DNA of 64,000 bases from Schmidtea polychroa. Taxonomy: Eukaryota. The notes beneath the pieces are model-generated. The model was given only the letters and a program-made list of their open reading frames with translations. It searched no databases and was not told where the DNA came from. The translations under genes were made by a program, and so were the position numbers. The stretch covers positions 26,228,001-26,292,000 of the forward strand of contig CM097885.1 in the NCBI GenBank assembly GCA_044892525.1, read 5' to 3'. Within the stretch, counting starts at the first letter, position 1, and every line of letters begins with the position of its first letter. Positions 5,191-64,000 of this stretch are shown here, one piece after another.

Positions 5191-5329
5191 GAAAAGAACG
5201 ATGATACTGCCCCAGTATATTTCGAAAAAATAGAAAAGATGGTTGACCAAGTTCTGAAGCACAAATGGGACAAGAAAGAATTAATGTCATATTTTTTGGT
5301 CCATTGTATCAAAGACAAGGTCTCGATGG

Positions 5330-11870: not shown

Positions 11871-14800
11871 ATGAGAAATACCCCAACCTTCCAGAGACCT
11901 ACTATGGATAATATTCTTAAACTCTTTGCTGGAACACTCGCAAGTTGCTCGCCTAATCCTTTGATTGAACTACCCTCACTTCCATACCGTATATTCTCCT
12001 CACTTCTAAACAATCGCCTCTTGAGCTGGATAAAACTCGGCAACCTACTATCTATCAACCAAAAGGCTATATGTGCACCCGATGAGAAATACCCCAACCT
12101 TCCAGAGACCTACTATGGATAATATTCTTAAACTCTTTGCTGGAACACTCGCAAGTTGCTCGCCTAATCCTTTGATTGAACTACCCTCACTTCCAGAAAC
12201 TCGGCAACCTACTATCTATCAACCAAAAGGCTATATGTGCACCCGATGAGAAATACCCCAACCTTCCAGAGACCTACTATGGATAATATTCTTAAACTCT
12301 TTGCTGGAACACTCGCAAGTTGCTCGCCCAATCCTTTGATTGAACTACCCTCACTTCCATACCGTATATTCTCCTCACTTCTAAACAATCGCCTCTTGAG
12401 CTGGATAAAACTCGGCAACCTACTATCTATCAACCAAAAGGCTATATGTGCACCCGATGAGAAATACCCCAACCTTCCAGAGACCTACTATGGATAATAT
12501 TCTTAAACTCTTTGCTGGAACACTCGCAAGTTGCTCGCCTAATCCTTTGATTGAACTACCCTCACTTCCAGAAACTCGGCAACCTACTATCTATCAACCA
12601 AAAGGCTATATGTGCACCCGATGAGAAATACCCCAACCTTCCAGAGACCTACTATGGATAATATTCTTAAACTCTTTGCTGGAACACTCGCAAGTTGCTC
12701 GCCTAATCCTTTGATTGAACTACCCTCACTTCCATACCGTATATTCTCCTCACTTCTAAACAATCGCCTCTTGAGCTGGATAAAACTCGGCAACCTACTA
12801 TCTATCAACCAAAAGGCTATATGTGCACCCGATGAGAAATACCCCAACCTTCCAGAGACCTACTATGGATAATATTCTTAAACTCTTTGCTGGAACACTC
12901 GCAAGTTGCTCGCCTAATCCTTTGATTGAACTACCCTCACTTCCAGAAACTCGGCAACCTACTATCTATCAACCAAAAGGCTATATGTGCACCCGATGAG
13001 AAATACCCCAACCTTCCAGAGACCTACTATGGATAATATTCTTAAACTCTTTGCTGGAACACTCGCAAGTTGCTCGCCCAATCCTTTGATTGAACTACCC
13101 TCACTTCCATACCGTATATTCTCCTCACTTCTAAACAATCGCCTCTTGAGCTGGATAAAACTCGGCAACCTACTATCTATCAACCAAAAGGCTATATGTG
13201 CACCCGATGAGAAATACCCCAACCTTCCAGAGACCTACTATGGATAATATTCTTAAACTCTTTGCTGGAACACTCGCAAGTTGCTCGCCTAATCCTTTGA
13301 TTGAACTACCCTCACTTCCAGAAACTCGGCAACCTACTATCTATCAACCAAAAGGCTATATGTGCACCCGATGAGAAATACCCCAACCTTCCAGAGACCT
13401 ACTATGGATAATATTCTTAAACTCTTTGCTGGAACACTCGCAAGTTGCTCGCCTAATCCTTTGATTGAACTACCCTCACTTCCATACCGTATATTCTCCT
13501 CACTTCTAAACAATCGCCTCTTGAGCTGGATAAAACTCGGCAACCTACTATCTATCAACCAAAAGGCTATATGTGCACCCGATGAGAAATACCCCAACCT
13601 TCCAGAGACCTACTATGGATAATATTCTTAAACTCTTTGCTGGAACACTCGCAAGTTGCTCGCCTAATCCTTTGATTGAACTACCCTCACTTCCATACCG
13701 TATATTCTCCTCACTTCTAAACAATCGCCTCTTGAGCTGGATAAAACTCGGCAACCTACTATCTATCAACCAAAAGGCTATATGTGCACCCGATGAGAAA
13801 TACCCCAACCTTCCAGAGACCTACTATGGATAATATTCTTAAACTCTTTGCCGGAACACTCGCAAGTTGCTCGCCTAATCCTTTGATTGAACTACCCTCA
13901 CTTCCCGAAACTCTCTCTTGCGACCCTTTCGACATCGATGAAATTAAGGCAATCTTCAAGCAACTCAGCAATACGGCCCCAGGTATAGATGGCATCTCTC
14001 TATCTGACTGGAGAATTCTATCACCTGACTTTGAATTCCTTCTATCCTTGTTCAACAACCTACTACGCACAACTACTTGCCCTATGTCCTGGAAAACCTT
14101 TCGCTCCAAACTAATTCTAAAAGCTGGAAAGACCGAGACTAGCCATGAAGCTAGCGCCTGGAGACCCATATCTATCATGAACACCTCATACCGTATATTC
14201 TCCTCACTTCTAAACAATCGCCTCTTGAGCTGGATAAAACTCGGCAACCTACTATCTATCAACCAAAAGGCTATATGTGCACCCGATGAGAAATACCCCA
14301 ACCTTCCAGAGACCTACTATGGATAATATTCTTAAACTCTTTGCTGGAACACTCGCAAGTTGCTCGCCTAATCCTTTGATTGAACTACCCTCACTTCCAG
14401 AAACTCGGCAACCTACTATCTATCAACCAAAAGGCTATATGTGCACCCGATGAGAAATACCCCAACCTTCCAGAGACCTACTATGGATAATATTCTTAAA
14501 CTCTTTGCTGGAACACTCGCAAGTTGCTCGCCTAATCCTTTGATTGAACTACCCTCACTTCCAGAAACTCGGCAACCTACTATCTATCAACCAAAAGGCT
14601 ATATGTGCACCCGATGAGAAATACCCCAACCTTCCAGAGACCTACTATGGATAATATTCTTAAACTCTTTGCTGGAACACTCGCAAGTTGCTCGCCTAAT
14701 CCTTTGATTGAACTACCCTCACTTCCATACCGTATATTCTCCTCACTTCTAAACAATCGCCTCTTGAGCTGGATAAAACTCGGCAACCTACTATCTATCA

Positions 14801-15696
14801 ACCAAAAGGCTATATGTGCACCCGATGAGAAATACCCCAACCTTCCAGAGACCTACTATGGATAATATTCTTAAACTCTTTGCTGGAACACTCGCAAGTT
14901 GCTCGCCTAATCCTTTGATTGAACTACCCTCACTTCCATACCGTATATTCTCCTCACTTCTAAACAATCGCCTCTTGAGCTGGATAAAACTCGGCAACCT
15001 ACTATCTATCAACCAAAAGGCTATATGTGCACCCGATGAGAAATACCCCAACCTTCCAGAGACCTACTATGGATAATATTCTTAAACTCTTTGCCGGAAC
15101 ACTCGCAAGTTGCTCGCCTAATCCTTTGATTGAACTACCCTCACTTCCCGAAACTCTCTCTTGCGACCCTTTCGACATCGATGAAATTAAGGCAATCTTC
15201 AAGCAACTCAGCAATACGGCCCCAGGTATAGATGGCATCTCTCTATCTGACTGGAGAATTCTATCACCTGACTTTGAATTCCTTCTATCCTTGTTTAACA
15301 ACCTACTACGCACAACTACTTGCCCTATGTCCTGGAAAACCTTTCGCTCCAAACTAATTCTAAAAGCTGGAAAGACCGAGACTAGCCATGAAGCTAGCGC
15401 CTGGAGACCCATATCTATCATGAACACCTCATACCGTATATTCTCCTCACTTCTAAACAATCGCCTCTTGAGCTGGATAAAACTCGGCAACCTACTATCT
15501 ATCAACCAAAAGGCTATATGTGCACCCGATGAGAAATACCCCAACCTTCCAGAGACCTACTATGGATAATATTCTTAAACTCTTTGCTGGAACACTCGCA
15601 AGTTGCTCGCCTAATCCTTTGATTGAACTACCCTCACTTCCAGAAACTCGGCAACCTACTATCTATCAACCAAAAGGCTATATGTGCACCCGATGA
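11380..15696 (+). repeat. Higher-order tandem array built from RT coding sequence (493, 211 and 164 bp units)
   Basis: 18 units each starting tgagaaatacccc; order L,(M,S)x4,M,M,L,S,S,M,M,L,S; the ORF track shows 375, 211 and 1243 bp periods. Confidence 0.97.
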
Positions 15697-15739
15697 GTTG
15701 ATTTCACGTATAAGGTAAGGCACAACATTGAGGAGACTT

Positions 15740-17173
15740 GAAAATGCCTTAACTGATACCAAAACAATTCTAGCCTCCTATCTAGAAAACTAACTTGAAA
15801 ATGCCTTAACTGATACCAAAACAATTCTAGCCTCCTATCTGCACCCTGCTCAAAAACTCAATGCCTACAAAATTTTCATACATTCTCGCCTTACCTATAT
15901 CTACCGCAACTGCGAAATTCACCACAATATTCTCGACTCCGAAAGAAACCTTAAAAATAATGCAGGTATACCCCATAGAGGCGCCACCCAAAGACTAAAA
16001 TCTATAATCAAAAATGCCATTGGTGATAAAATTTGCGAGCTCAATAACAATTTCCTATACGCATCCATCAAACTTGGGGGACTGGGGTTAACATCCCTCA
16101 TTGATGAATACCTTATCCAGGGAATTGTCCACCTCATACGTGCCCTCAACTAAACTGACACTGATTTTCGCAACCTCGCCCTATCCGAACTCAGTCAAGC
16201 CAGAGGAAATGGCAACATCAACTCTGCAATCTCCTGGTTAAATGGCAACTCCACTAAAAACTTTCCATCTAAATCTCTCTTCTCGAAATTCAGGAAATCA
16301 TCCATAAGACTACGACTCAAATATGGCATCTCCACTAAAATAGTCTTCCTCAAAAATTCCTACCAATTAGAAATTAAATACAAAGACCGAATTAATTACT
16401 TCACATCCTCTAACCTTAAAGACACCTCATCCGAAATACACTCTATTATTAGCCTCATTTATGCTGATAGATGGTCCGAAATGAAATGCCAAGGACATAT
16501 AGTCAAAAGCATTGGTAGCAGTAGCATTGCTAGTTTCTTCTTTAAAACGGACATCCTAACTGACCCGCAATTTATCTTCCTGATCCGAGCACGCAACAAC
16601 ATCCTAAAATTAAACTATACGCCCCGTCGAATTAAATCCAAGAAATCTACCCTATGTAGGCATTGCCACGCCCATCCTGAAACACAGGCACACATATTTA
16701 ACCACTGCCCTGCTAAATCCAATGCCCGCCGAAACAAACATAGAAATGTCCTCCAAGCTGTCTCCGACTTCCTCCTCGAGCATAAATACGATATAGACAT
16801 CGAACAAACCCCAATGGGGATCAACACCACCCTCATCCCCGACCTCCTTATCAAAACCCCGCGGAACAAATTGATTCATATCCTGGACATAAAGGTCCCT
16901 TACGAAAGTGAAAAAAACTTTGAACAAGCTAGGAATAATAATTTTGAGAAATACAAACACCTAGCAATCGACATAGGTCATGCACACAACTGCAAGACCT
17001 CTCTACTTACCCTCGTTATTGATACACTCGGTACCTGGGACAGGAAGAATGACAAAGACCTCAGAATAATTGATCTGAGTAGAGCAGAAATTAAGGCTCT
17101 AGCAAAAAGAGCCTGTACAGCAGCCGTAGTCAGCAGCTACCTCATATATAGGGAACACATATACAAAGACTAA
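15740..17173 (+). pseudogene. RT thumb, CCHC zinc knuckle and restriction-like endonuclease (RLE)
   Basis: LHPAQKLNAY, KLGGLG, CRHC...ETQAHIFNHC, RRNKH, PDLL...DIKVPYE, KYKHL, GTW; ORF 16481..17173 is open, upstream part has a stop. Confidence 0.92.
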
Positions 17174-23106: not shown

Positions 23107-23875
23107 ATGGCCAATGGCAGTGGCATGGAAGCTTATATTGAATCAATTCATGGGAGTCCAGTAGCAATCGCATCTTCATCAAGCTATTTAGTAAGCCCAC
23201 CGGGACCAAGGGATAATCTCATCCGAGTTGTCATGGTGACTGATGAAGGCAACAACCTAGTCTGGCGAATTGATATATTCAAGGCAACAGACCAACCAAC
23301 AAAATGGGTAAAAATTCAATTCACTGTCGTCATCCAGTTCGAGAAAGAAGGGGAAATTAGAGATAATTTTTTCTCTTATAGCAACGAAGTTTTTACAGAA
23401 AATTTGTTTAATGAATGGAATCACCAGATTAAATAATAAAATAGAAAAATTTACGTATTTAGGGAGCTGATGGCGGGTAGTTAAGATCAAAGAGATAGAT
23501 ACACATTTGAATAGGCTAGCTGGTCATAGTTATATCCCCACACCATCAGCATTAATCCCAAAAAGAGCTATAGTAAACGTCAAAAACAACGACGATATGT
23601 GCTTTACATATAGCATTTTAGCACTGTTAAAACGCGATGTTATACGTCGTCATAGAAATCGTGTTACGACATATGAAAATTATTTAGGTGAACTGAATTT
23701 TGACCCTATAAGTGATTGTCCCATGAAATTATGTGATATCCCCAAATTCGAGAGGAAAAATAAGGAATTAAATTTGGCAATTAATGTATTAACCTATAGG
23801 AAAAAACCAGCTAAGCCTATAGAAAACGATGACAGCTTCTATATTCACCATCATCCTCATTTAGATATTATGCAA
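23107..23875 (+). pseudogene. Maverick pPolB N-terminal region
   Basis: GS*W...AGHSYIPTP...KRAIVNVKNNDDMCFTYSILA...IPKFERKN...INV, typical of the Polinton PolB N-terminus; contains stops. Confidence 0.85.
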
Positions 23876-38851: not shown

Positions 38852-39159
38852 CTATATACTCCGAGTCTATCCGACAAATTATTTTGTCCCCCTATGGGTA
38901 ATGCACACAAGGGTACTGCTCACGCTCAACAACTCACAAGGGTATTATTAAACAAATCAACATTGTATTATTATTATTATTATTATTAATATTATTATTA
39001 TTATTAATCTATATACTCCGAGTCTTTCCGACAAAATATTTTGTCCCCCTATGGGTACTGCTCACGCTCAACAACTCGCAAATCAACAAATCAACAAAAC
39101 ATACATTTATTTAAACAATAAAATAATGTTAAATTAACAAAGGTAAACTAAATATTGAT

Positions 39160-39813
39160 TTACATGTATATAGTATGATATTCATTAATCAGTGTTGAAC
39201 AGGCTTGACACTTGCGAACATTCTTCTCGTGACACTTAGAACAAACAATTACGTGACCACATGGTAAATACAAAACCGAAACTCGATTTTCTTTACAAAT
39301 TGAACAAGTTAAATACCTTTTCTTAACATCGTTCAGTTTTTTCGTTAGCTTATTTTCAATCAAATCAGCTTTTGCTATCCATTCATAAATCAATCCACTA
39401 TATCCCGGTTTCAACCTTAAATACATACAACTCCAAAAGTATTCATTCAGTGAATCGTTGTTTACCGATATTTTTTCTAAGTACATTAAATAACTAGATA
39501 ACTTTAAAATGGATTTATCATAATTAAATAAATCAATCAAATATTCAATAGAGGAATGTTTGAAAATCTTTAAAATATTTATGATTTGCTTATCACTGTA
39601 AGTATCATGATTATTTATAAAATCTTCAACTGTGTTGTTAAAAAATTTCAATGAACGCTTATCTTCGGAATAGGTTGGACTTAATTTTTCCTTATTTCTA
39701 GTAGGACTTCCTTGCTATAAATGACACATATATAAAAAATATTGACAAAATAATAAAGTTACCAAATGTGTTTTATGATTTACACATTCAACAGTTTTAT
39801 TTGTAGAAATCAT
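39160..39813 (-). CDS. Spliced C3HC4 RING-finger protein (IAP/MDM2-type C-terminal RING), 201 aa
   Basis: Exon 39813-39763, 48-nt GT-AG intron, exon 39714-39160 in frame; CSIC...LYLPCGHVIVCSKC...CQAC; no BIR domain seen. Confidence 0.85.
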
Positions 39814-39986
39814 TAGTAATAAATTTCTTAATAACTAAATTACTTTTGTTTTTACATTTATAAAAATTGAGATAGCCAATCAAATTAGAGTTTTCAAAAT
39901 GTAGAAATTGTAACCATGGTTGAACCTTCAAATGTATAACAATAATAATAATAAGCATGACTAGTACCCTTGCAACCTGTTGAAAG

Positions 39987-40290
<304 letters not shown>

Positions 40291-40610
40291 GTCATTATTA
40301 TAGTCATTGATATAGCTGCATGCTCACTGCAGACTATATAAAAATCACCATTAAATACTTATAAAAATTATAATAAAACAACAAACCAAATACTTGAAAA
40401 AATTAAAAAAAAAATCTGGTTACAAATTTTTATTCAATATGTATATATATATAAATACAAGTTTTATTCAATATACAAGTTATAATACAAGTTATAAATA
40501 CAAGTTTTTTATACAAGTTTTTGTAAATCAAAATAAAAGTTTCTATACAATTTTCACAATTTTCAGTTGTCCTATTTAAATTTTAATCCTATTTAATTTT
40601 CATCTCCCAG

Positions 40611-40992
40611 TTTCGAAAGTTATACTTCAATAGAATATTTCACTGTCTTTTCGATGAAGACATGAAATGGACAAGGATAATTATAGGATTCACCTACATG
40701 AAGATAATCATTGCAAAAGGTCAACATGACTCAGAACATTATTATCAGTGGTCTTTAGAAGTAAGATTTCTTTTATAATCTACATATATATTTTAATAAT
40801 ATTCATTTCTAGATAATCAAGTCCAAGTTTACCCCATGGATAGAAGCCAATGGCGGATGGGGTGTATTAAATAAACTGGCCTGCGATGTTAAAGAAACTG
40901 ACGAAATCAAAAGAAAAATGAAAAACTATATAAAACGTACAACTGGAGTTGTTATAATGTATATTTTCTGTAGATATATGAATAAAAATTAA
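40611..40992 (+). CDS. Spliced Bcl-2-family-like protein (5' exon not located)
   Basis: Exon 40611-40760 with BH1-like LFDEDMKWTRIIIGFTY; 52-nt GT-AG intron; exon 40813-40992 with BH2-like PWIEANGGW and a hydrophobic tail; open after splicing. Confidence 0.75.
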
Positions 40993-41261
40993 TGTTATTG
41001 TTTTTAATAGTATATTTAAATGAAAATAATTCAATTTTAAAATTTATTACCACAATCGCAGTCGTCATCTCCACATTTCATTATATTTTCAACGACATGA
41101 TCTACACAACCTTTATCTGTAGTCATTATTACCACTTTAAAACTATATTATAAGTTTGTTTATAGGATTTTCTTTGTTAAATTTGCATGTCATTTGCATT
41201 AATGTTGCAATTAATAAAGAGAAAAAAACAAATATGACTAATACATTTATTAAATATAATA

Positions 41262-41681
41262 TTAAAATAGTTGTGAAAGTCTAGCAGACATAATTTTCCA
41301 AATTGGAGAATACACATCATTATTATCAACTTTATATCCTTGGATTGCTATTGTTATATACCAATTTTCGTTTTCTTTGAAGCTGATTTCATCAAAGGAA
41401 TTATAAAATCTTGCATATCGGTTGTTGAAAAATGCATGTTGATTACAAGATAGATTCGTATTCAACCGTTTGAAAACCTCATCAATAGATTTAACATCTA
41501 ACATTGAAAGCGTGCCGGATAAGAATTGAAATTTAGTCGGAATTAGCTTGATCGGTGACACCAATTTCATATTGATTTCTTCTTTTAAAAAATACATTTT
41601 ATAGTTGTGGAACATTTGAACAGGTTGTACAAGTTCTGGAACAACTTTTGACTTTTCAGTGCTTGAAATTTTCTTTGTCAT
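41262..41681 (-). CDS. Maverick accessory ORF, 139 aa (possible OB-fold/SSB-like)
   Basis: Intact ATG ORF with an upstream CCAAT box; beta-rich C-terminus ITIAIQGYKV...PIWKI; function speculative. Confidence 0.5.
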   Translation of the reverse strand: MTKKISSTEKSKVVPELVQPVQMFHNYKMYFLKEEINMKLVSPIKLIPTKFQFLSGTLSMLDVKSIDEVFKRLNTNLSCNQHAFFNNRYARFYNSFDEISFKENENWYITIAIQGYKVDNNDVYSPIWKIMSARLSQLF

Positions 41682-41877
41682 CGTGAATTATGATTAAAAT
41701 GAAATGGTACAGAGTTTTTATACCTATGACTATTGTTTATCATCCAATCAGATTGCTACATGTCTTTGTTTAAATTGCATGTCATTTGCATGTCATTTGC
41801 ATTAATGCTTTTATTATAAATATTGTTTTTTATTATTATTTCTAATATTACTATTTCTATTATTATTTCTATTTCTA

Positions 41878-42284
41878 TTATTTCGATTTACAAAAACAAA
41901 TCAACATAAAATTTATTTTGATACAATCTGACTCGAGTGATGATTTCTCAGTCTTCACCAAACACCATTCAACATATTGTTGATAACGGAAATTGCAACA
42001 GCTACATCCGAAAATGCAAGGAATCTCTGGTTTCATTTCTTTCATCCCCTTCCTATCTTGATATCCCATAGAAAGGTGTTTATTATATCGAATATCCAGA
42101 TTCGAGTTTGGTTGTATACCAAATCCGGAATGATAGCTAGATCTCTATCTTGTAGAATTTCATATAATTCTGGATAATAGAAACATAATCTTTGCAGGAT
42201 AATTGATTGATATTCATCTGTAAAAAATATATATTAATGTAATAATAAAAATTTGAAATTACCATAATTTGCATGCTCTTTCAT
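41878..42284 (-). pseudogene. Spliced CxFxCxCC protein (homologue of 62453-62800)
   Basis: MKEHANY|DEYQSIILQ...then frameshift...CIFGCSCCN; directly downstream of the TBP-like gene. Confidence 0.55.
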
Positions 42285-42438
42285 TGAGGTGATTGCGGAA
42301 CTTTGTATGTTTTACATTTTTGTTGAATAAATGACAACTAAACCGAAAACATCTTTTTATAAATAATCATCAGCCAATTAGATTTCGACCAATCAGAATC
42401 ATGCATTTCAATTGCATTGAATTTGCAATGATAAATAA

Positions 42439-42903
42439 TTAATTAAGTGATAATAAAAAATCTAAAAATTCATTTCCTTCAATTATTGATTTAATTTCAG
42501 ATATGATATTATCAACTATACATTTGTAATCAATATTTTTTATTCCAAGAATTACTATCTTACCGCTAGCGAATATATTTACACACATAGGGTTATATTT
42601 TATATATCTCAAAGCTGGAAATAATTCTGGTTCATAAAAGCATGGTATTAATTTAGCCAATTCATTTAAATTACAAGAAAAACCTATATCAGAAGTTACG
42701 GTTATCGATTGTATTTCTAAATCATAAACATTATATTCACTAGCTTTGATTATTTCCTTACACCCCATAACTCTACATTTACCAGTTTTGAAATATATTA
42801 TTGGATATTTTTTACTTCTATTGATGAGTTGTTGTGGTTTCCCCATTGGAAATACCATTTTTGATACATCAGCTTTTGCCCTGTAATTTATATTTGAAAG
42901 CAT
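42439..42903 (-). CDS. TATA-binding protein (TBP)-like protein, copy 1
   Basis: SNIN, YFKTGKCRVMGCK, EIQSITVTSD, YEPELFPAL and IFASGKIVILGIK match TBP core repeats; intact and intronless. Confidence 0.88.
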   Translation of the reverse strand: MLSNINYRAKADVSKMVFPMGKPQQLINRSKKYPIIYFKTGKCRVMGCKEIIKASEYNVYDLEIQSITVTSDIGFSCNLNELAKLIPCFYEPELFPALRYIKYNPMCVNIFASGKIVILGIKNIDYKCIVDNIISEIKSIIEGNEFLDFLLSLN

Positions 42904-42960
42904 TTTAATGAAATAATTATAAAAACTCTGCTATATATATATATCCTTTTTAAAATAACT

Positions 42961-43014
<54 letters not shown>

Positions 43015-43017
<3 letters not shown>

Positions 43018-46000
43018 GGTGGGTCGAATGTTAATAAATTTTGAGTTCAAGAAAGGAAACATGGTTAAAAAGTTGTATTTTGGTATAGAAAAATCGAATC
43101 AAACCATTTTACTTAGATTTATAGACATTTACTGCTCCCAACTTTTCTCCGAAAATGCAGTTCAACATAAGTGTGAAAACAATGTAATTTGGCTAGTGTC
43201 GGAATGTGTTTTGCGCCTTTGTTCATATTTAGATGTAGCTTTCTTAAGAGCTTATAAGTATATTATTTACTCTCTTGGGCTGAGATAGTATATTCTGTGT
43301 CCTCATCCCACATTGAAATATATCCTGACAACGTCAGTGATTAGGAAGGGCCAAATTTGAATTATCCTTTTCAAAGACAAAAATCAACTTTCGAAATTAT
43401 TTTTTATTAAAAACATCCAGCCAAAAGTTTAGAAATGTATTAGCGAGGGCATAAAAAGAAGTCACATGAAATCAGCTTTGCTTTGCACCTTGGGCAATTC
43501 CTTCCTTGATTTTTTACACAGTAGTACCATACCATGTCTGGACTTGTGACCAAACACTTTGCAACTGGCAGAAGAAACATCTTTGATGGCTCTTTCAACG
43601 GCTTGAGAATGACAGGGAAATTGTTCTAATGTAATTTTCTTATTCATCTTCAATTCATGATCCAATATATGAGATAAAAGAGGGGGAGGCGTCAAATTAC
43701 ATTTTGTCCAGTCAATCATGTCAACATATGATGTAGCAGACGACTGAAGAAAGACAGTATTCTTGTCCATAGTGCGAATCACTTCGGAAGGGAGAAAATT
43801 TTGTCTTGCAGTTATGATTTTTTCTGTTGTAAGCTTTCTGATTTCTTCATCATCATCACCAACAGCAGCTAGGAGTATATTTTCTGGATGTGAGAAGTAA
43901 TTGTTGTTCTGAATGACAGGAAAGATGATTTCTTGGTCTGATGGATCCAAATCCTGCAGAAGTTGGAGCATATAAAAAATATTTCTTGCACCATCTTGGC
44001 ATGACGAGTGAGTCTTTATATAAAACCATGACGGTCCATAGAAATTGACAATAAATTTCACTATTCGCATGAGAGGTTCAGATGGAGCAGTTTCGGACAT
44101 ATATAGTCGCAGAATTCTATTAGCTTTCGTTAGCCAGCGACTGTGATTCAAATTTCCTGGTTGTGCCATTTGTAGAAAAGGGACATCCTTGTTGTTGTGG
44201 TACCCTTTCTGGACTGCCAAGCATACTCTGAGGAAATACAATTGATCAGTGTTCAATTCTTTCTTGACATTTTCACTAATATCTACGACCTTTCCAGGAA
44301 GGGACATAAAGGCTACTACGGGCTTGTCTTTTGGATCAAAATCAAGAACGCTTCCTATTTCACCACATGACGTTTTTGGACCTTTTGTTTCTCCACCATC
44401 GACGACTGAAAAATACTTCCTGAATGGCAATTCATTTGCATGCAACAAGCATATCAGCCATTTTAGAGGTCGCCCTAGGCTTTTTTCGAGTCTTCTGATT
44501 ATTCCATTATTTTTTCCGGTGTTTGTATTGGTTCCATCGCACACAATTGCTTGAAGGGTCAGTGAGGACTGCGTGCTAACGATGATTGACATGATTTCTT
44601 TGCCAATATCCACAGCTTTACTACTTTGAGGTACAACATGATCGATATATGTATCCCCTGGAAAGGCGACAATCACATAATGCTCCTCTTTTAGGATCCT
44701 TCTATGAAGTAAGGTGGAATCTTGTTTCCCGTCGAAACCGAGGCAAATCAAGTTTTTCGCTTCTGCTGAATGCTGTTCAATTTCTCTCTCCCTCCAGTAC
44801 TTTCTCTGACGCCGTAATTTTGCGGGATCGATGATTGTTTGAGAGGATAACAGTTCCATATCTTTCAGAAAAGCGTTTACTAGCAAACACGTGTCTCTGT
44901 TGCTCACACCACATCTGTCAACAGCTTTACTTAATTCAGGATAATGTCTTCTATTTTGAAATTCATCACATTCTTCTACGCTTGACTCTGAGCTTTCTGT
45001 TGAATTGTCTAACTTATCTTTACTTTCATCACTAGCGGCTTCACTCTCCGTGTCACTTCTTGAGGTCGGATGTGTTCATTATTTCATTTTTCATTTGTTT
45101 TCCTTTTCCAGTAGGGCTGCTTTTCGTTTGATTTCTCTTCAATTTTGAGGTTTCCTGTCTGTCCGTATTTCCGATTTTCATGTTTCTGGTAGTTTGTTGG
45201 TCAATCCAGAACTCCCACTCTAAGGTAGGAATTTTCAAGGCCAATCGGCATGTACACTGACTTCTTCCACGAGCACCATCATTAAAATATTTGCAGCAAC
45301 ATATGTCAAACAATTTGGAAAACGAGCTTAACTTATCTTGAAATTTGGCAGATGACCTCTTGCATTCTGGATACTTCTCTAATTCACGCACTTTTGATAT
45401 TAGTCGCTTGACACGAACCACAATACTACTGAACTCAACAGTTGGGATACTTGCCTTCATATAAATTTCCTTCACCTTATTTGCGAGAAGAGTTGCTTGT
45501 TCGTTAAAGCCAGTATGAAATTGCGTACATTTCTCATTGTAACAGTAATCACGAAACACATCTTCACAAGTAGGTAATTGGTTTCTGGGTAGTTCACAAG
45601 TTTGACCAAACAGACAATGACGTGATTTACTTCTTGTTTTGCGAAATTGCTTATTTCTCTGTCCCTTCATAACTGCTCTTCTGTACTCAGCTCTGGCAAA
45701 ATAAAAGTGAATCATCAAGTTAACTTTTTTAATTAGGTCCAGCAAACACTTGACATCCAATCGAAACAAATTAAATTATCTGAGTTTAGACTGACTAGTT
45801 GTATCCATGTGGATTATGTGTTGACTTTAGTGTGTGTGTTAGTATTGTTCAGAAGAAATTGTCTTTGTGAGTGCTTGTGTGAAGGTGCTTCCGTGAATTA
45901 ACCTCTCTATACATGCACGAGTTAGCTCGGACTTGTGAATAGAGCATGTCAAAAATGGTCTTTCTGCAAGCGTGTGACTGCTTGCAGGATGAATTTACAA

Positions 46001-46169
46001 TGGCACGTGTGCGAGCATTTTTACTGGGATAGTACTAATACATACAAACAAAAGTTGGGACCTGTAGACCCTTTTAAACAGCAGTCTTTTGCAGGGATAT
46101 TTCATTTTCTAGCATAAGCACAACTTTTTAGGCATGTTTGGAGAAAAAAAAAATTTTCAACCCACCCTA
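43015..46169 (-). mobile_element. hATm-type DNA transposon, near full length
   Basis: TIR TAGGGTGGGTCGAA / TTCAACCCACCCTA (1 mismatch); inserted in a (TA)n tract giving an ATATATAT flank on both sides. Confidence 0.9.
43462..45769 (-). pseudogene. hATm transposase (apparently one frameshift near 45060-45110)
   Basis: LFDICCCK, DRCGVSNR, GFDGKQD, CDGTNTNTG, CLLHANELPFR, HSRWLT, HPEN, PCHSQAVER. Confidence 0.88.
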
Positions 46170-46250
46170 ATATATATATATAGTTATTTTAAAAAGGAGT
46201 TCATTTAAATTATCAATATAAACAATAATTATATAGTTTAAATTTAAAAA

Positions 46251-46560
46251 ATGGAATTACGAAATGATGCAGTATACCAAATCGTTGGTCCGAGTGGTAG
46301 CGGGAAAACATTATTTGTTTGTAAATTACTAAAATCTAATTTGTTCAAAACAAAATTCAACAATATTTATTGACATAGAGGCGCCGATGAAGAACATGGA
46401 TTGACGCAATCAAGTTTCTGTCAGTTGAAAAACATGAAAATAGTAAAGGGTTTTGATAAAAACCGGTCAAGTCGTTTGAAGAGAGATGATGTCATCATTA
46501 TCGATGATTTGTATCAAGAAGCCAATAAAGAAAAGGATTTTAATAATTTATTCACAAAAA
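46251..46560 (+). pseudogene. Maverick packaging ATPase (A32/FtsK-like), truncated, copy 1
   Basis: MELRNDAVYQIVGPSGSGKT (Walker A), IIIDD (Walker B), NLFTK; TGA at 46371. Confidence 0.88.
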
Positions 46561-47192
46561 TTTTACTGAATGATACCTTAAATGATTTTAATATACCTAT
46601 TTCTAAAGTAAATCGACAGCTCAGACCAACAACATGTATGGATGACCACAAATTGTTAATTTATTTCCAGTGTCACGTCTCTCAAAAATACCGTGAGTGT
46701 TTTAACAAAACAGAGCTCAAAGAAACTTTCCAGATAACAACTCCCCTGAATGTTTTGAACAAAAATGATTGAAATTGAGAAAAAATGATTAGATGGCGAT
46801 TAACTTCTGGCCACAACCCTAAATATATAACATGAAAATTAAGATTTTAAATATTGAATTCGTTGTTTTCAGCCTGGAAATATTAACAGAATATTTTTTA
46901 ATTCAAAGAATCTTCATTATAAATTTTTAAATTAAATGAAGGATATATTAAATTTACAATATTATATAAATTATACTATATTTATTAATAAATTTAGAAT
47001 ACATAAATTATAATATTATATAATATTATATAAAATTATACTATATTTTATTGTTTAAATAACTAAATTGTTTAAATATTTTTAAATAACTTTTCTTTCG
47101 TTTTAGTATCCATAAAGTAAGTAAATAAAGAAATTACTAAAATATTTTAATTGTTTTCCTTATTAATGAAGAAAATACAACAACAATCCAAA

Positions 47193-55919: not shown

Positions 55920-56825
55920 TGTTGAGGTCTGTAAATTAAAATTAAAAATTTAAATAAAATTTAGGATAATAATTCAAATGGAAAGTAAGCGAGGAAAAAA
56001 GGCAAATAAAAGCGGGATCGTGTACAGAATCAATAGTAAAGTGTGATGGAAACAGTATTAGAAAATGCAAAAAGCAATTACGAAATGCGAAAAACACTCA
56101 AACGTATGAAAACAGAAAACGTTAATTAATTGGCTAATGGAAAACCCGAGCTAATGGGAAACCCGAGCCAATGGAGAACCCGAGAGATAAAGGAAACCCG
56201 AGCTGGGTAAACAAGAAGAAAGGCAAACAAAAGGAAGATTTGGGCCCATTAGCTTGACACAATGATTAATGGGAAAAGAGTAAGGAGAAGATAGCGCGCG
56301 TAGGAAGACCGGTAGGGCCATTAATTATCTGGATTCGTTGGACCATTATGGATGACAGCCGAAGCAAACACGTAGGAGAAAATGTCAAACAAAAGATTGG
56401 CTCGGCAATAACCATTTGTCATCCTGATTTCGAGGAGTATATAAGCAAAGGGAAAATCAGAGAAAATCGGCATTCTGCCTCAGCTAGGGTTCGAAGAATT
56501 AGACTGTAGAGGAAGTGGTAAACGAATTAGGGAAGTAGGGAAAAAAAGAAATAGAATTAAGAATACGGAAAGGCGAAAAGGGATCAAACCAAACAGAAAC
56601 CGAGGAAAACGAGAGTCAAGAGAACTAAAGGATCAAAAGGTGAATATTGTTTGTTTGCAAAGCATCAACGCCGAGCGGAGAATCGTATAAAACTTTGATT
56701 GGTAATTGTAGCGTGATAATAAATTGTGAACCTGTTGTTTCAATATACGTTGGGTCGTTCATTGTTTTGATTTAAAGAACACAGGAGTCAGAGAGAACCG
56801 ACTTGAAATAATCCAAAACCCAACA
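55920..56825 (+). mobile_element. 3' LTR (906 bp) of a Ty3/Gypsy element
   Basis: TGTTG...CAACA; upstream PPT; TATATAA at about 56438; AATAAA at about 56718. Confidence 0.88.
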
Positions 56826-57253
56826 GTCCTAAAAAATTAAATTACAGTAAATTATGGTTCTAAAAAATTAAATTACAGTAAATTATGGCTCAAATTTTAA
56901 AATTAAGTAATCAATGGTAAAGAATTTTAAATAAGTAAATTAAAGTGATAATTTTTAAATAAAGTAATCAATGGTAAAAATTTTAAAATAAGTAAATTAA
57001 AGTAATAATTTTTATATAAAGTAATCAATGGTAAAAATTTTAAAATAAGTAAATTAAAGTAAGATTTTAAAATTTAATTACAAAATAATAGAAGGTGTTT
57101 GAGAACTGAAATTTTTTAATGAAAATTTTTATGAATAATTTTCAATGGTAATTGTTATGAAATAATTTTTTAAGTTAATTTTTAATGGAAATTTTTATGA
57201 AATATTTTTCAATGATAATTTTAGATGGAAATTTTTAAGATAATTTTTAATGA

Positions 57254-57302
<49 letters not shown>

Positions 57303-57551
57303 TATCGACCAAATACATAAAAATTGAACTAGACACATAAAAATTTACCAAACAAATAACAAATGTAAAGATATAAAATTTATTCATCCAATATTTGCTT
57401 GTAATAAGCTCTTCTTAATTCTGCTAGTAAAATATGAACAACTTCTTTCATCTTATATTCTTGGCAGCATCTACATCTAAACGGACATGATAATTTCATT
57501 GGATCCATACATACTTCACAATCGTCTATGCATTTAAATCTTGATTCTTGT
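56156..57551. repeat. Left arm of a long inverted duplication
   Basis: Reverse complement of 62629-64000; by eye differs only in (AAT)n length. Confidence 0.95.
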
Positions 57552-57664: not shown

Positions 57665-58249
57665 TTAAATTTTCGCACAAGTTAAACTAAGTGTAGGATT
57701 TGATCTTGTTAATTTAATTTGAACACTAACACCTGGTAGTAAATATTTAGGTTGATCAAAGAAATCAAATTGAAGTGGGGAACATAAAGAAAAGGATTTT
57801 GATTTTTCAATCCATGTTTTTCTCGTAAGATCATTGTTAGTATACCCCATTCCACCTAAAGAAGTTCGTTTAGTATTTCCGTCATAATTTATAAGTGTTT
57901 CAATTAATGCTTTGTGGGCAAATCGATCATTTGATCCTTCAACTTTGATTGAATTAAAAATTAATTCAACATCTTAAAAAAGGGTTTGGAAGAAAAAATA
58001 TTTTGGAATTACTTCTGATTCGCCTAAATTCTCACCTAAATTATTAACAACTTTCAATTGAATATATAACAAAGTATCATTCAAATCTAAATATTCAGTC
58101 TGCGATCCGTTTATGTAAAATTGAATCGAAGAAGAACCAGCATATGTAATAGAATTTCTTGGGTATATATCTTGAAATGCTCCATGTTCAATCACTGCTT
58201 GGGGAGAAGGTCTATCAAAAAGACATAATTCTGATTAAGCACTAATCAT
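57665..58249 (-). pseudogene. Maverick major capsid protein (PY/hexon), N-terminal fragment
   Basis: SELCLFDRP.PQ..IE...IQFYING...YLDLNDTLL...TLF...ALIETLINY...KYLLPGV; stops; truncated. Confidence 0.88.
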
Positions 58250-58644
58250 TTTTCAAAGATGGTACCATATCCTTTCATTCTTTTGTTTATATGTTTCTTC
58301 ATAATTTTTCGGCGTTTAAGTATTCCGCCTTTTTGTTCTTTATCATTTTTAAATACATCGGATACTTTATTAATTACTTCTGGTAAATGTTGCATCACAG
58401 CTGGTAATGATTCTTTAATTTCAGAAATTGCATTTGATTTTAAAGCAGGCAAGATATTTGCATTGTTATTTATTACGTCATTAACTGTTTTCATACCAAA
58501 ATTTCCTATTCGTCTAAGAATTGGGAGTGCAAATCTACCTATTGTCTTCAACCAATCGGTTCCATATTGTTTACCAACAAAATATGGTAAATCACCACCC
58601 GATTGGTTACTACTATAAAAATGTATTAAGTCAGGATTAGTCAT
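58246..58644 (-). CDS. Maverick PW-like virion core/membrane-active protein
   Basis: QSGG...FVGKQYG...IGRFALPIL, basic C-terminus; located between penton and hexon. Confidence 0.7.
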   Translation of the reverse strand: MTNPDLIHFYSSNQSGGDLPYFVGKQYGTDWLKTIGRFALPILRRIGNFGMKTVNDVINNNANILPALKSNAISEIKESLPAVMQHLPEVINKVSDVFKNDKEQKGGILKRRKIMKKHINKRMKGYGTIFEK

Positions 58645-59653
58645 TTATTTTACGAAAATGTAATGTCAAGTATGTTTTATCTTCTTTTCCAAAAATATAT
58701 TTTCCACTATCATCTCGTATATTGATTTCTATATTGTTTATATATGAAGACGATACAGGTAAGTACATTGGATTCTTTTCAATTATTTGTACTAAATCAT
58801 CTTTTTTATGTTTTTCCACCCAAATACATTTCAAAAGAGGGACCAATGTATCACCAACAATAATTGGTTCGATAATATTTGTATAGATCATCAATTGTTG
58901 ATTGCGTTGTAATACTTCAGGTTCTTTAAAACCAATAATAAATTTGTCAGTATACGTTTCTTCTAATAATCCTAAACTATTAGGTAAAAATTTACTAAAT
59001 TGAACTTTACTTACATCATCATCCATTAAAATTTTAACGATTTTTCCTTTTTGAATATCAACAGATTTAAATGGACGAGGATAAAAGGTTGATAGTTGAT
59101 CATTTATTTGTGAAAGATCTGTAATGATATTTTCTTCGAATGTATCAGTAAACTCAACATCGTAATAATATTGTATAGTTAATCGTATTGTATCAAACTT
59201 TATTTTTCGATTATTTGGAGGAATAGTGATTTTGTTCATTGTTTCTTTAAAATTTATTTCTTTTTCTGAAAATCCCAATTTTTGTGCTTCTTTAATACAA
59301 TCGAATTCTACTTTAAAAGGAAAATATTTACAATTAATGTTCAATGTATTTCCATCAATATATATTAAATAAAATGGAGAGTCGTGACTGATTGTATATT
59401 CATTTTTTTCTTGGTTAAAGTAAAAGTATTCATAACTTGTATGTAATACACTTTTACTATATTTGACATTTGAATTGTTGTAAAAAGGAAAATAATTATA
59501 CACAAAGGTAAAGTCCATGAGAGCTACTTCCCATTCACCACCCAAGTAAATTGGATTTTGAAATTCGACATTAAATTTACCTGCTTCATTATTTGGATGA
59601 GTCTGAGGACAACTATTAGAAGGTAAATTCACATAAAAATCTTTTTTAATCAT
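58637..59653 (-). CDS. Maverick minor capsid protein (PX/penton), copy 1
   Basis: FYVNLPSNS...PNN...GEWEVAL...IYTNIIEP..VGD..VPLL...YLPV...IEINIRD...LTLHFRK. Confidence 0.9.
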   Translation of the reverse strand: MIKKDFYVNLPSNSCPQTHPNNEAGKFNVEFQNPIYLGGEWEVALMDFTFVYNYFPFYNNSNVKYSKSVLHTSYEYFYFNQEKNEYTISHDSPFYLIYIDGNTLNINCKYFPFKVEFDCIKEAQKLGFSEKEINFKETMNKITIPPNNRKIKFDTIRLTIQYYYDVEFTDTFEENIITDLSQINDQLSTFYPRPFKSVDIQKGKIVKILMDDDVSKVQFSKFLPNSLGLLEETYTDKFIIGFKEPEVLQRNQQLMIYTNIIEPIIVGDTLVPLLKCIWVEKHKKDDLVQIIEKNPMYLPVSSSYINNIEINIRDDSGKYIFGKEDKTYLTLHFRKIND

Positions 59654-60668
59654 TTATTTTACGAAAATGTAATGTCAAGTGTGTTTTTGTATCTCTACTA
59701 ACTTTTATTAATTTTCCACTATCATCTCGTATATTGATTTCAATGTTGTTTATAGAAGAATTAGAAATTGGTAGATACATTGGATTCTTCATTTCTAATT
59801 GCACAATTTCTCCTTGTTCATATTTCTTTATCCAAATAGATTTCAATAACGGGACTCTTACATCTCCAACAGTCAATGGTTCGATAATATTTGAGTAAAT
59901 AAACATTTGTTGATGATGATTAAATAATTTTGGAATTTTTGTTCCAATAATTTCTTTCTCTGTAAATGTTTGTTTCTTTAATCCCAATGTTTTTGTTAAA
60001 TTTTTATCAAAGAATATTGATGAAATGTTATCAGCAAGACTTATTTTAACAAATTCATTATTTTGTATTTTTAAATCTTTAAAGGGAGATGAATTAATTG
60101 TCATTAACTGACCATGTATTTCAGATAAAGTATTGATGTATAATTCATCTTCGAAATAATGTTCAAATTTTGTTTTTTCAACAACGCTTATAATTATACC
60201 AAATTGATCAATTGTTTAATCTTCTGTAAATTTTGGTAATTTAATTCGAAAATGATCACTATCACTAATAACCGATACTGATTTTAATCCAAATTTGATA
60301 GCATGCTCAAAATCTGGAAACGTTATTTTAAATGGAACATGTGGACAAACAACAACCAAATTCTCATATCTTTCAATGAACAGTGCTTCAGGAGTATTTT
60401 TAGGATTTATTACTTCAAAGGTTCGATTTGAAATATTTATTCTAAAATATTTAATTTCTTCATCCATCTTTACTTTTTCATATTGTATCAATGAATTACT
60501 GTAATAGGGAAAAGTATTATACACAAAGGTAAAGTTCATGAGAGCTACTTCCTATTCACCATCCAAGTAAATAGGATTTTGAAATTCGACATTAAATTTA
60601 CTAGCTTCATTATCAGGGAAAATAAGAGGACAACTATTAGAAGGTAAAATAATATAAAAATCTTTCAT
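59646..60668 (-). pseudogene. Maverick minor capsid protein, copy 2
   Basis: Same N- and C-terminal motifs (MKDFYIILPSNS, GE*EVAL, LTLHFRKIND); stops. Confidence 0.88.
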
Positions 60669-60673
60669 AATAT

Positions 60674-61535
60674 TTATTTAATCAATTGATTTTCGGATAT
60701 CCAAGATGGAGTTTCATATCCATGCCATTTAACATAGTATTGTTTATATTTACCATCTTTTTTGGTTTTTAAAATCTTTTGAATTCTAAATATTGTAGGA
60801 GCAGGAATTACTTGGAGTTCTTGTTCATAGAATTTACCACTGATTGGTTTGTTTTCATGATCAACTATCACATACATGACAGGATTCTGTTTTGTATCGA
60901 TTTTAAAAATTTGATATACTTCATCACTCCAATTATTATCAAAGTTTTTGATGAATGGTGAAGAATTGATTTTACTAATTCTTACATGATCACCAACTTT
61001 GTATTTCGGTTTATTGATTTTTTCTAACTTTGTTTGATTTTTAGTAAAATCTGCAGGTGTTTGTCCTTTTAATCCTCTGTGTGGTGAATGATTGTAACTG
61101 AAAATAATTTTTGGCAAAACATTTATCCAAGTTTTATTACCTTGATATACAAAATATTTTTTCAAACGTTCTCTCAAAGTTCGATTAAATCGTTCTACAT
61201 GAGTAGCTTTTAACTGAGAAAATACTGAGTAGTGGTTTATTCCTTTGATAACCTCTTTAACTTTGCTGTTATAAAATTCTTTACCTAAATCATATATTTA
61301 AAAATTAATTAATTAAATTTAATTACCTAAATCCGTTTGTAAATTAATAGATTTACCATCTGCAAACATTTCTTTTATCGCATCAGCCATTTCATTTGCA
61401 GATTTAGTTTTTGTAGGAACAGCACGAGCATATCTATTAAAAACGTCTATACAAGTCAGAATATATTTGTACCCCTTGTTAATTTTTGAATAAGGTATCA
61501 TTTCCATCAAATCCATTTGCCATACATAAAATAAT
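60674..61535 (-). pseudogene. Maverick retroviral-like DDE integrase with C-terminal chromodomain; 42-nt intron; 5' deleted
   Basis: WQMDL, CIDVF, QTDL|GKEFYN, VERFNRTLRE, YNHSPH, YYVKWHGY..PSWI; intron 61285-61326. Confidence 0.92.
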
Positions 61536-61853
61536 CCGCAATGTCTACTGATTTTTGTAAATAAATTATTAAAATCTTTTTCTTTATTTGCTTCCTGGTA
61601 CAGATCATCGATAATAATAACATCACCTTAATCTAGATGACCAATTTTTATCAAATCCTTTAATTATTGTCATTTTTAATTTACAGAAACTGTTTTGAGT
61701 CAATCCATGTTCTTCATCTGCACCTCGATGCCAATATATTTTATTAAATTTAGATTTAAACATGTTTGATTGTAATAAATTACATACAAATAAAGTTTTC
61801 CCGCTTCCACTAGGTCCTACAATTTGATATACTGCGTCATTTCTTAATTCCAT
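61536..61853 (-). pseudogene. Maverick packaging ATPase, truncated, copy 2
   Basis: GPSGSGKT; frameshift before IIIDD; FTKISRH then joined directly to integrase sequence by deletion. Confidence 0.88.
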
Positions 61854-61903
61854 TTTTTAATTAAATTATTTTATTTAATTTGTTTATAATTACAATAATT
61901 AGA

Positions 61904-62389
61904 ATGATCAGCAACATTAATTATAGAGGAAGATGTGCAGTTAATGGAATGAAGTTCCAATCAGGAAAACCTCAACATGTTGTGGATAGAAGTGGAAAAT
62001 ATCCAATTTTATTCTTCAAGAGCGGGAAATGTAGGATAATGGGATGTAAGAAACCATTACAGGAAGGCGATCTCAAATATCAGATTCAAGATTTACAAAT
62101 CCAATCAATTACATTAACGTTAGATATGGTTACATGTATTGATTTAAATGCATTGTCAAGGAAAACCGATAGTTACTACGAGCCTGAAATATTTCCAGCT
62201 TTACGTATTCTCCAGTATAACCCCCTATGTGTAAATGTTTTTTCAAGCGGGAAAGTTGTTATATTAGGGATTAAAACATTTGATTATTTTAATCAAATTC
62301 AAGAAATTCAGAAATTCATTATCATGCAGAAATCATTAACTATAAATATCACAACAAATGAAGAAATATTGGAATATTTATTAAGTTAA
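61904..62389 (+). CDS. TBP-like protein, copy 2
   Basis: MISNINYR, FFKSGKCRIMGCK, QIQSIT, YEPEIFPAL, VFSSGKVVILGIK; intact. Confidence 0.88.
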   Translation: MISNINYRGRCAVNGMKFQSGKPQHVVDRSGKYPILFFKSGKCRIMGCKKPLQEGDLKYQIQDLQIQSITLTLDMVTCIDLNALSRKTDSYYEPEIFPALRILQYNPLCVNVFSSGKVVILGIKTFDYFNQIQEIQKFIIMQKSLTINITTNEEILEYLLS

Positions 62390-62452
62390 TTAAATTAATT
62401 TAATTAATTGTGTTTAAATTAACTGAATATCTACAATAACAAAAATTCAAAA

Positions 62453-62800
62453 ATGGATGACGATAAGCAGGCTTACATATTCCAGACTATATTAACAAAG
62501 ATGGAAGAATTGTTCCCGAATATAAAGAATAGACTTTCGTATTGTGCTCCGGAATTATTAGCTTATAGAATCAAGCAATTAACGGGGATCAATATAGAAG
62601 AACTTCTACGAAGACATTACGAGTCTGTACAAGAATCAAGATTTAAATGCATAGACGATTGTGAAGTATGTATGGATCCAATGAAATTATCATGTCCGTT
62701 TAGATGTAGATGCTGCCAAGAATATAAGATGAAAGAAGTTGTTCATATTTTACTAGCAGAATTAAGAAGAGCTTATTACAAGCAAATATTGGATGAATAA
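62453..62800 (+). CDS. Cys-rich protein (CxxC and CxFxCxCC), 115 aa
   Basis: Intact ORF with CIDDCEVC...CPFRCRCC directly after the TBP-like gene. Confidence 0.7.
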   Translation: MDDDKQAYIFQTILTKMEELFPNIKNRLSYCAPELLAYRIKQLTGINIEELLRRHYESVQESRFKCIDDCEVCMDPMKLSCPFRCRCCQEYKMKEVVHILLAELRRAYYKQILDE

Positions 62801-64000
62801 ATTTTATATCTTTACATTTGTTATTTGTTTGGTAAATTTTTATGTGTCTAGTTCAATTTTTATGTATTTGGTCGATATATTATTATTATTATTATTATTA
62901 TTTCATTAAAAATTATCTTAAAAATTTCCATCTAAAATTATCATTGAAAAATATTTCATAAAAATTTCCATTAAAAATTAACTTAAAAAATTATTTCATA
63001 ACAATTACCATTGAAAATTATTCATAAAAATTTTCATTAAAAAATTTCAGTTCTCAAACACCTTCTATTATTTTGTAATTAAATTTTAAAATCTTACTTT
63101 AATTTACTTATTTTAAAATTTTTACCATTGATTACTTTATATAAAAATTATTACTTTAATTTACTTATTTTAAAATTTTTACCATTGATTACTTTATTTA
63201 AAAATTATCACTTTAATTTACTTATTTAAAATTCTTTACCATTGATTACTTAATTTTAAAATTTGAGCCATAATTTACTGTAATTTAATTTTTTAGAACC
63301 ATAATTTACTGTAATTTAATTTTTTAGGACTGTTGGGTTTTGGATTATTTCAAGTCGGTTCTCTCTGACTCCTGTGTTCTTTAAATCAAAACAATGAACG
63401 ACCCAACGTATATTGAAACAACAGGTTCACAATTTATTATCACGCTACAATTACCAATCAAAGTTTTATACGATTCTCCGCTCGGCGTTGATGCTTTGCA
63501 AACAAACAATATTCACCTTTTGATCCTTTAGTTCTCTTGACTCTCGTTTTCCTCGGTTTCTGTTTGGTTTGATCCCTTTTCGCCTTTCCGTATTCTTAAT
63601 TCTATTTCTTTTTTTCCCTACTTCCCTAATTCGTTTACCACTTCCTCTACAGTCTAATTCTTCGAACCCTAGCTGAGGCAGAATGCCGATTTTCTCTGAT
63701 TTTCCCTTTGCTTATATACTCCTCGAAATCAGGATGACAAATGGTTATTGCCGAGCCAATCTTTTGTTTGACATTTTCTCCTACGTGTTTGCTTCGGCTG
63801 TCATCCATAATGGTCCAACGAATCCAGATAATTAATGGCCCTACCGGTCTTCCTACGCGCGCTATCTTCTCCTTACTCTTTTCCCATTAATCATTGTGTC
63901 AAGCTAATGGGCCCAAATCTTCCTTTTGTTTGCCTTTCTTCTTGTTTACCCAGCTCGGGTTTCCTTTATCTCTCGGGTTCTCCATTGGCTCGGGTTTCCC
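62629..64000. repeat. Right arm of the inverted duplication (includes an LTR copy at 63331-64000, minus strand)
   Basis: Reverse complement of 56156-57551; runs off the end of the window. Confidence 0.95.

Follow-up and report, generated by a model that had tools for sequence, protein, structure and literature searches.

Alpha-type adintoviruses, as described in the available text of PMC8502044, carry TIRs, a protein-primed PolB, a chromodomain rve integrase, an FtsK/A32 ATPase, an adenain, a core protein of the pX kind and accessory genes of Bcl-2/IAP type, all of which they share with the elements examined here. In that text, TBP occurs only in a figure legend, for MELD viruses with an adintovirus-like PolB from non-animal datasets; the word 'promoter' is absent, and neither a TBP-plus-box system nor a Cys neighbour is described. 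Beyond the legend, the open-access literature searched contained no account of a TBP or a late box in animal Mavericks and did not address how their tightly abutting capsid genes are expressed. TBP-like proteins with the viral TBP fold are found in giant viruses (Nucleocytoviricota), e.g. the ASFV B263R family. Nucleocytoviricota with TBP-like factors carry their own RNA polymerase. In herpesviruses of the beta and gamma groups, a TATT late box is read by the vTBP (BcRF1/ORF24/UL87) of the vPIC, which according to the available text of PMC4893493 forms one domain in a large protein of a six-member complex and has about 10% identity to TBP.

The window, i.e. the whole 64,000-nucleotide stretch of Schmidtea polychroa DNA that was analysed, contains two elements with a TBP-like gene. 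Element A is a TIR-bounded, internally deleted Maverick; copy B is a Maverick fragment at about 38970–46560, on the opposite strand to A. Both read ATPase <- -> TBP -> Cys, so that the order and orientation which a preliminary description had reported for 41878–46560 and 61536–62800 are borne out by the ORFs of both copies. The same description spoke of two diverged Mavericks; the divergence holds, with TBPs 55% identical over 128 aa and both above the PF00352 cut-off, but each window element is only a deleted fragment. The features are as follows.

56156..57551, no strand: left TIR of element A, in which the 3′ half of the Cys gene recurs in inverted orientation (57383–57550)
57665..61527, minus strand: virion cassette of element A, comprising a 5′-truncated integrase, a pair of putative minor capsid genes, PZ and a 3′-truncated putative major capsid gene
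61853->61520, minus strand: 5′ part of the family A ATPase gene (A32-like, packaging), broken, fused to the integrase by a deletion
61904..62389, plus strand: TBP-like gene of family A, 161 aa, two TBP repeats with the first shortened; PF00352 E=4e-15
62453..62800, plus strand: Cys-family gene of family A, 115 aa, intronless, with a helical N-domain and a C-x3-C-x-C cluster
62629..64000, no strand: right TIR of element A, starting within the Cys gene and extending beyond the window end
41262..41681, minus strand: 140-aa ORF, working label 'SSB-like' (putative), the commonest TBP neighbour in relatives
41878 (about)..42284, minus strand: Cys-family gene of family B; exon 1 42284–42263, predicted GT-AG phase-1 intron 42262–42218, exon 2 with a broken frame
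42439..42903, minus strand: TBP-like gene of family B, 154 aa; PF00352 E=7e-15
43015..46169, minus strand: TIR-bounded DNA transposon in a TA run between the TBP and ATPase of B, with transposase-like ORFs
46251..46561, plus strand: 5′ part of the family B ATPase gene (packaging), truncated

The deletion end of the copy A ATPase lies near 61530; the full-length ATPase of a full A copy matched Pox_A32 in Pfam above the cut-off (E=8e-7). The TIR arms of element A (56156–57551 and 62629–64000) are 96–100% identical. For its capsid and PZ genes, the labels are ones that we take from Polinton gene order and size, and Pfam gave no match for the putative capsid or PZ proteins. The two putative minor capsid genes of family A stand in tandem (58637–60671, minus strand), are about 46% identical and have one box each (see below), as is also the case at L103. 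Copy B had been described as split by an hATm element. The split is real, being a 3.15-kb TIR-bounded insertion; the 'hATm' label goes by the style of the TIRs, and a Pfam search of the 43015–46169 insertion, a presumed hAT-type transposon, returned nothing. The 140-aa ORF of B had no significant Pfam match.

Further along element B there is a likely spliced Bcl-2-like gene (40587–40992, plus strand), with two exon-like ORFs resembling the BH1 and BH2 regions; their best PDB matches were to Bak, at E=0.97, and to a Bcl-2, at E=0.19. A C3HC4 RING protein with an IAP-like C-terminus (39160–39714, minus strand; PF13920 E=1.6e-9) follows; it also occurs next to PolB in family C and E copies. Elsewhere the window has more Maverick PolB fragments at 3700–7925, among them the 3′ part of an A-type PolB, whose TIR-like end lies at about 5500–5900, another PolB piece at 23417–23875, and a near-perfect tandem array at 11380–15780 (211/164-nt spacing, 375-nt period).

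Genome searches with different TBP queries yielded seven Maverick families, A–G. The elements are Mavericks of the Polinton/adintovirus type: the tests that could be run found TIRs, protein-primed PolB (PF03175 E=1.5e-14 on the A-type fragment 6972–7922), an rve integrase (PF00665 match), an A32/FtsK ATPase and an adenain-type protease (Peptidase_C5 E=7e-7, from a copy of family C). The fuller A and B copies carry a PolB of about 1350 aa, which is deleted from both window copies. The candidates for jelly-roll major and minor capsid proteins, conserved ORFs of 407 aa and about 340 aa, lie in the expected order and had no Pfam match. TIR length differs among copies. One family A copy (L081:3388-8095 / L082:1999-6732) has 4.7-kb inverted repeats, 99% identical, which duplicate the Cys, TBP, ATPase and integrase genes and part of the capsid genes; several inverted TBP pairs 9–13 kb apart suggest that such duplication is perhaps common.

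The model of the TBP-like protein (AF2, pLDDT 94) matched TBP structures in Foldseek with E 2e-9 and a TM of about 0.6 over about 170 columns, and as modelled the protein has a genuine two-repeat TBP saddle fold. A protein search found 122 clusters at E<=1e-8, most of them 140–170 aa long. In 82 aligned sequences, E95, F38, F113, P23, M46, C109 and N111 are invariant (82/82), F97 and R101 occur in 81/82, and position 93 is E or D in 82/82. The two-repeat saddle, the C-terminal acidic stirrup (E93, E95; conserved across the 82 TBPs) and three of four intercalating Phe residues are shared with cellular TBP/TRF and archaeal TBP (PF00352), whose genes, for host TBP and TRF, exist separately in the same genome. 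The acidic stirrup of TBP binds TFIIB. Unlike cellular TBP, the Maverick protein has a shortened first repeat, no N-terminal tail and invariant changes on the DNA-facing sheet. The Phe residues kept are F38, F97 and F113, assigned from what we take to be the canonical positions; in place of the first-stirrup Phe there is a short loop that contains an invariant Pro. In our own alignment R101, C109 and N111 map to yeast I194, V203 and L205, a numbering that is partly presumed. The available text of PMC1636458 describes the yeast altered-specificity mutant TBPm3, changed at those three positions, and has the N-terminal repeat of TBP contacting the TATA box in its 3′ half. The shortened N-terminal repeat is the one that would face the TATA 3′ half, where the ATAAAC box described below has a non-canonical C.

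A metagenome scan returned 77 TBP loci, of which 72 were counted; the five dropped are cellular-type TBP loci (L163–L167, 29–31% identity, no element genes), and the viral locus L090 had been dropped before counting. Polinton core genes were present in 34/72 of these loci with the same TBP type.

Upstream of the virion genes we found a short strand-specific motif, ATAAAC. It lies 20–110 nt before 96/101 core cassette starts, compared with 7% of random positions; the counts come from the seven families of this genome and 26 metagenomic loci, which are related, so that counts and p-values overstate independence. Within that range, all ATPase (21/21), pX (18/18), PZ (13/13) and major capsid (14/14) genes have a box, as do 20/21 minor capsid genes and 10/14 integrases. 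The box-less cassette genes are four of the 14 integrases, and the 102-aa gene had a box in 0/3 cases. Before TBP starts the box occurs in 4/29 cases, and within 20–60 nt it is seen at 76/101 cassette starts vs 3/36 starts of TBP and the 140-aa ORF; by a looser pattern, 20/36 of the latter have a TATA-type element. The distance from box to ATG is never 5–24 nt and has its mode at 25–37 nt. The reversed motif was found at 4/101 starts and GTAAAC at 1/101. The base before ATAAAC is T, C or G and never A (0/103), giving TATAAA at 70/101 starts and CATAAA at 22/101. Where the box falls within the ends of coding regions, box-spelling codons are used in 45/48 eligible tripeptides vs 26/53 elsewhere (p=6e-7). 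In the window, the boxes are these candidate late promoters:

61882..61888, minus strand: TATAAAC, about 29 nt before the family A ATPase ATG
60742..60748, minus strand: TATAAAC, within the 3′ end of the integrase, ahead of minor capsid gene 2
59748..59754, minus strand: TATAAAC, before minor capsid gene 1
58736..58742, minus strand: TATAAAC, before PZ
58285..58291, minus strand: TATAAAC, within PZ, 35 nt upstream of the ATG of the major capsid gene
46217..46223, plus strand: TATAAAC, before the family B ATPase

As a TBP-less control we used a group-2 Maverick of the same genome, which has at least 145 ATPase matches. In its TIR-to-TIR copy there was no TBP or Cys match and boxes stood before 0/9 starts, in this one control lineage. 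This element (L259–L261; G000:C3:95634197-95649263) has a PLA2-integrase fusion. CATTTT occurs 3–13 nt before the ATG at 5/9 of its starts and is possibly a promoter signal of its own. A forkhead factor reading ATAAAC was considered and is unlikely, given the single GTAAAC and the four reversed motifs among the 101 starts.

The gene neighbourhood of TBP was then compared between this genome and its relatives. Of 108 loci with the best TBP scores in the genome, a choice that favours intact copies, 106 have the Cys gene downstream of TBP and 106 have a divergent ATPase within 1.5 kb; the order proposed from the two window copies is therefore kept across this host's seven families. It is not kept in the elements of other hosts. 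Where the metagenomic loci have an ATPase (n=25), it is co-oriented with TBP in 22; one of the other three (L142) is adjacent and divergent, one is divergent but separated from TBP by another gene, and the last is a weak, distant match, so that an adjacent divergent ATPase is seen in 1/25. Two profile searches found a Cys homologue in 0/72 relatives, whose loci are mostly short, 47/72 having at least 600 nt past TBP. The usual TBP neighbours there are the 140-aa ORF (24 loci, three of them from this genome) or an exonuclease-like ORF (21 loci). One branch of TBP-bearing elements (L117, L119–L121, L127, L129, L132–L141) has close by a conserved exonuclease-like ORF of 160–175 aa, labelled from its sequence and with no Pfam match. 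The search of IMG/VR turned up no ATPase relatives, hence no further TBP-less controls, and a single TBP locus, which is unrelated. The layout with a divergent ATPase and TBP is mostly confined to this host's families, and the three-gene order is a lineage-level linkage and not a demonstrated module.

TBP had been regarded as an old, vertically inherited part of the lineage. Its age is upheld by the 72 relatives, by a dN/dS of 0.07–0.23 in eight pairs and by a comparison of TBP and ATPase trees for 28 loci (two loci without a usable gene were left out), in which the deep groups agree (Mantel rho 0.85); we take TBP to be old in this branch because the two trees agree on the main groups. Strict vertical descent is not upheld, as the same comparison within this genome gave no agreement (rho 0.04). 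The family E ATPase, for example, is 97% identical to those of B and C, whereas its TBP is 91% identical to that of D and only 54–58% to those of B and C. All three genes are under purifying selection.

The analysis of the third gene, Cys, is a new addition here. The Cys protein of A and that of an open-frame B copy gave a weak alignment (E=0.001); the Smith-Waterman z was 6.4, with 0/300 shuffles as good. The other families bridge this gap: identities are 48% for A–F, 31% for A–C, 30% for A–G and 66% for B–D, and A–D reached z=11.2 (300 shuffles). Because of this bridging by families C, D, F and G, together with the shared intron, we accept that the A and B proteins, and the Cys proteins across families, are homologous on the alignments. 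As the preliminary description had noted, only one window copy (B, not A) has an intron. Families B–G all have a short first exon and a predicted GT-AG phase-1 intron just before the first helix, so that intron loss in family A would be the simplest reading. Exon 2 is open in 27/29 of the B copies that have the N-part. Contigs of four runs on family B contained no joint at the predicted intron, which is uninformative about splicing.

The CxFxCxCC motif fared less well. Both window variants are present (CPFRCRCC in the A ORF, CIFGCSCC in the B gene), but the F is not conserved: CGDDSCTCF, CPNGCPCC and CDSPCRCC also occur, with three cysteines constant, and C-x(3-4)-C-x-C is a better notation. 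When 1.84 billion representatives were searched with a profile of the Cys family, eight proteins were found. Six are distant and match mainly the N-terminal 45 residues; as five of the six have no Cys cluster, the family appears from these matches to be defined by its helical N-domain and not by CxFxCxCC, which is absent from most of the distant homologues. No longer or fused homologue was seen among 6251 candidates, which is weak evidence. The predicted structure is all-helical (pLDDT 74; about 58 in the Cys region). Nothing significant was found for the Cys protein in Pfam, no match in the PDB, and none in BFVD under E=3; VIA-align gave a best Z of 5.2 to generic helices, with no convincing fold. 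The ESM Atlas gave no usable match for the Cys protein or P0126, and IMG/VR no locus for P0126. The N-domain resembles the Rad23 XPC-binding (STI1-like) domain over about 50 residues in a weak, non-significant profile match (E=0.09 and 0.03) which Pfam and structure search do not recover, and the matched Rad23 stretch, unlike the Cys protein, lacks the Cys cluster. Complex prediction of TBP (1–145) with the Cys protein scored 0.00 twice; as no alignments were used and the partner fold is uncertain, this is evidence neither way.

Elements E and E2 have TBPs and ATPases that are each 99% identical, with Cys proteins at 54% identity and saturated dS. Between D and E, dS is 0.28 for TBP and 2.5 for Cys. 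Across pairs, Cys and TBP distances are weakly correlated (rho 0.30, p=0.03). Two public runs, X1 and X2, contain a joint which skips the whole family B Cys gene and has the non-intron ends AC..TG; in X1 its depth is 143, compared with 28 for the Cys-bearing form. The Cys gene is real and old, yet it is exchanged between elements independently of TBP, as a small family of genes predicted to be spliced. Because of this pattern of exchange we favour a host-interaction accessory over a fixed subunit, and the gene is probably an accessory and not a partner of TBP.

These data bear on four other readings. The preliminary description proposed that the Cys protein, putatively zinc-binding, may be a partner of TBP in a small viral transcription module; in the host's lineage this would be a module of two subunits, comparable to the herpesvirus vTBP with its Cys-rich partners. 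The two genes are adjacent and co-oriented in 106/108 copies and all seven families, the Cys cluster is conserved within them, and selection is purifying; together with the rho of 0.30 these also count against the independence of the Cys gene. Some A copies duplicate ATPase, TBP and Cys jointly in their 4.7-kb TIRs, and herpesvirus late complexes include a Cys-rich protein, according to the available text of PMC4893493. A module is nevertheless improbable and the proposal is not supported: the Cys gene has been swapped beside 99%-identical TBPs, was found in 0/72 relatives with the same TBP type, is missing from the more abundant form in run X1 and from a form in X2, and lacks its cysteines in 5/6 distant homologues. 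Alternatively, TBP and Cys could be recently captured passengers without a role, their order reflecting common descent, which alone predicts a shared order among families as close as these (ATPases 83–99% identical). Such passengers are hard to reconcile with dN/dS well below 1, with intact frames at saturated dS, and with the retention of TBP in lineages that share no more than about 38–40% ATPase identity; the selection data largely refute this reading, and we give it very little credence.

The box, too, could be read in other ways. It is often found close to where the preceding gene ends, and it looks like AATAAA, as a poly(A) signal variant (NATAAA) of the upstream gene would. This is very improbable, and was rejected, since the box precedes the divergent ATPase in 7/7 families, where no same-strand gene ends; since it lies 35–100 nt inside coding regions, so that cleavage would precede the stop codon; and since A never comes before it (0/103) and a 25-nt floor separates it from the next ATG. 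A less remote, though still unlikely, reading is that host TBP/TFIID or another host factor reads the box while the viral TBP e.g. sequesters TFIIB or dampens host transcription. The box is one base off a canonical TATA, and PDB 1qn3, to judge by its title, is a crystal structure of a plant TBP on a C(-25) variant of TATA. The TFIIB-binding stirrup is the best-conserved part of the viral TBP, which has lost one intercalating Phe loop. TATAAA is moreover the canonical TATA core, so that host TBP might read many of the boxes, and with a single TBP-less control lineage the box and TBP may be merely co-inherited. On the other side, the DNA-facing positions hold invariant, lineage-specific residues rather than signs of decay, the poorer host TATA CATAAA stands at 22/101 starts, and the TBP-less lineage lacks the box.

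On balance we favour, with a probability of roughly 55%, the reading that the Maverick TBP is a late-gene promoter factor acting through the ATAAAC box, while its Cys neighbour is probably an early accessory gene which the host transcribes and which is tied to TBP by position, not as an obligate subunit. Under this late-promoter reading, host Pol II would transcribe an accessory arm containing TBP, the spliced Cys gene, the 140-aa ORF and the RING and Bcl-2-like genes, with TBP made early from a host-type promoter. The viral TBP would then bind YATAAAC boxes through its remodelled DNA-facing surface, and its conserved C-terminal acidic stirrup would recruit host TFIIB and Pol II. Transcription would start just before each ATG, giving a short-leader transcript for each packaging or capsid gene. 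That the Cys gene adjoins TBP would reflect their common place in the early arm, and ATPase <- -> TBP -> Cys would mark the boundary at which the oppositely transcribed late cassette and early accessory arm recombine, an order that this host's families would owe to a single ancestor and that recombination then reshuffled; as such it matters less than TBP and its box. In run X3, whose type is a guess, a poly(A) loose end just after the 140-aa ORF (L057:3197) hints that this early-arm ORF is transcribed.

If this is correct, the stand-alone viral TBP would represent a naturally occurring TBP of altered specificity and speak for a viral early/late programme in Mavericks; as one protein and one 7-bp site, it is open to direct small-scale test. 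We further suggest, tentatively and as a possibility that falls short of even odds, that Mavericks evolved a minimal early-to-late switch independently of the herpesviruses, with an altered-specificity mini-TBP, a private YATAAAC box placed ahead of every virion gene, even in coding sequence, and, for this lineage, an exchangeable Cys protein as a host-specific cofactor.

Among the known systems, the giant-virus TBP-like proteins share the fold (Foldseek E down to 4e-8) at 9–20% identity, and the Maverick copies examined showed no RNA polymerase gene. We do not class the Maverick system as a herpesvirus vPIC because no homology to the other vPIC subunits was found, the Cys protein having no match in Pfam, BFVD or the PDB. 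Unlike the herpesvirus vTBP, the Maverick TBP is a stand-alone protein of 145–170 aa, is 19–26% identical to TBP in structural alignments, and has YATAAAC as its candidate box. The likeness is one of arrangement: in both there is a viral TBP-fold protein and a variant TATA before structural and rarely before early genes, and host Pol II is presumably used. By analogy, it is herpesvirus vTBP/TATT late transcription that the Maverick TBP and its box resemble.
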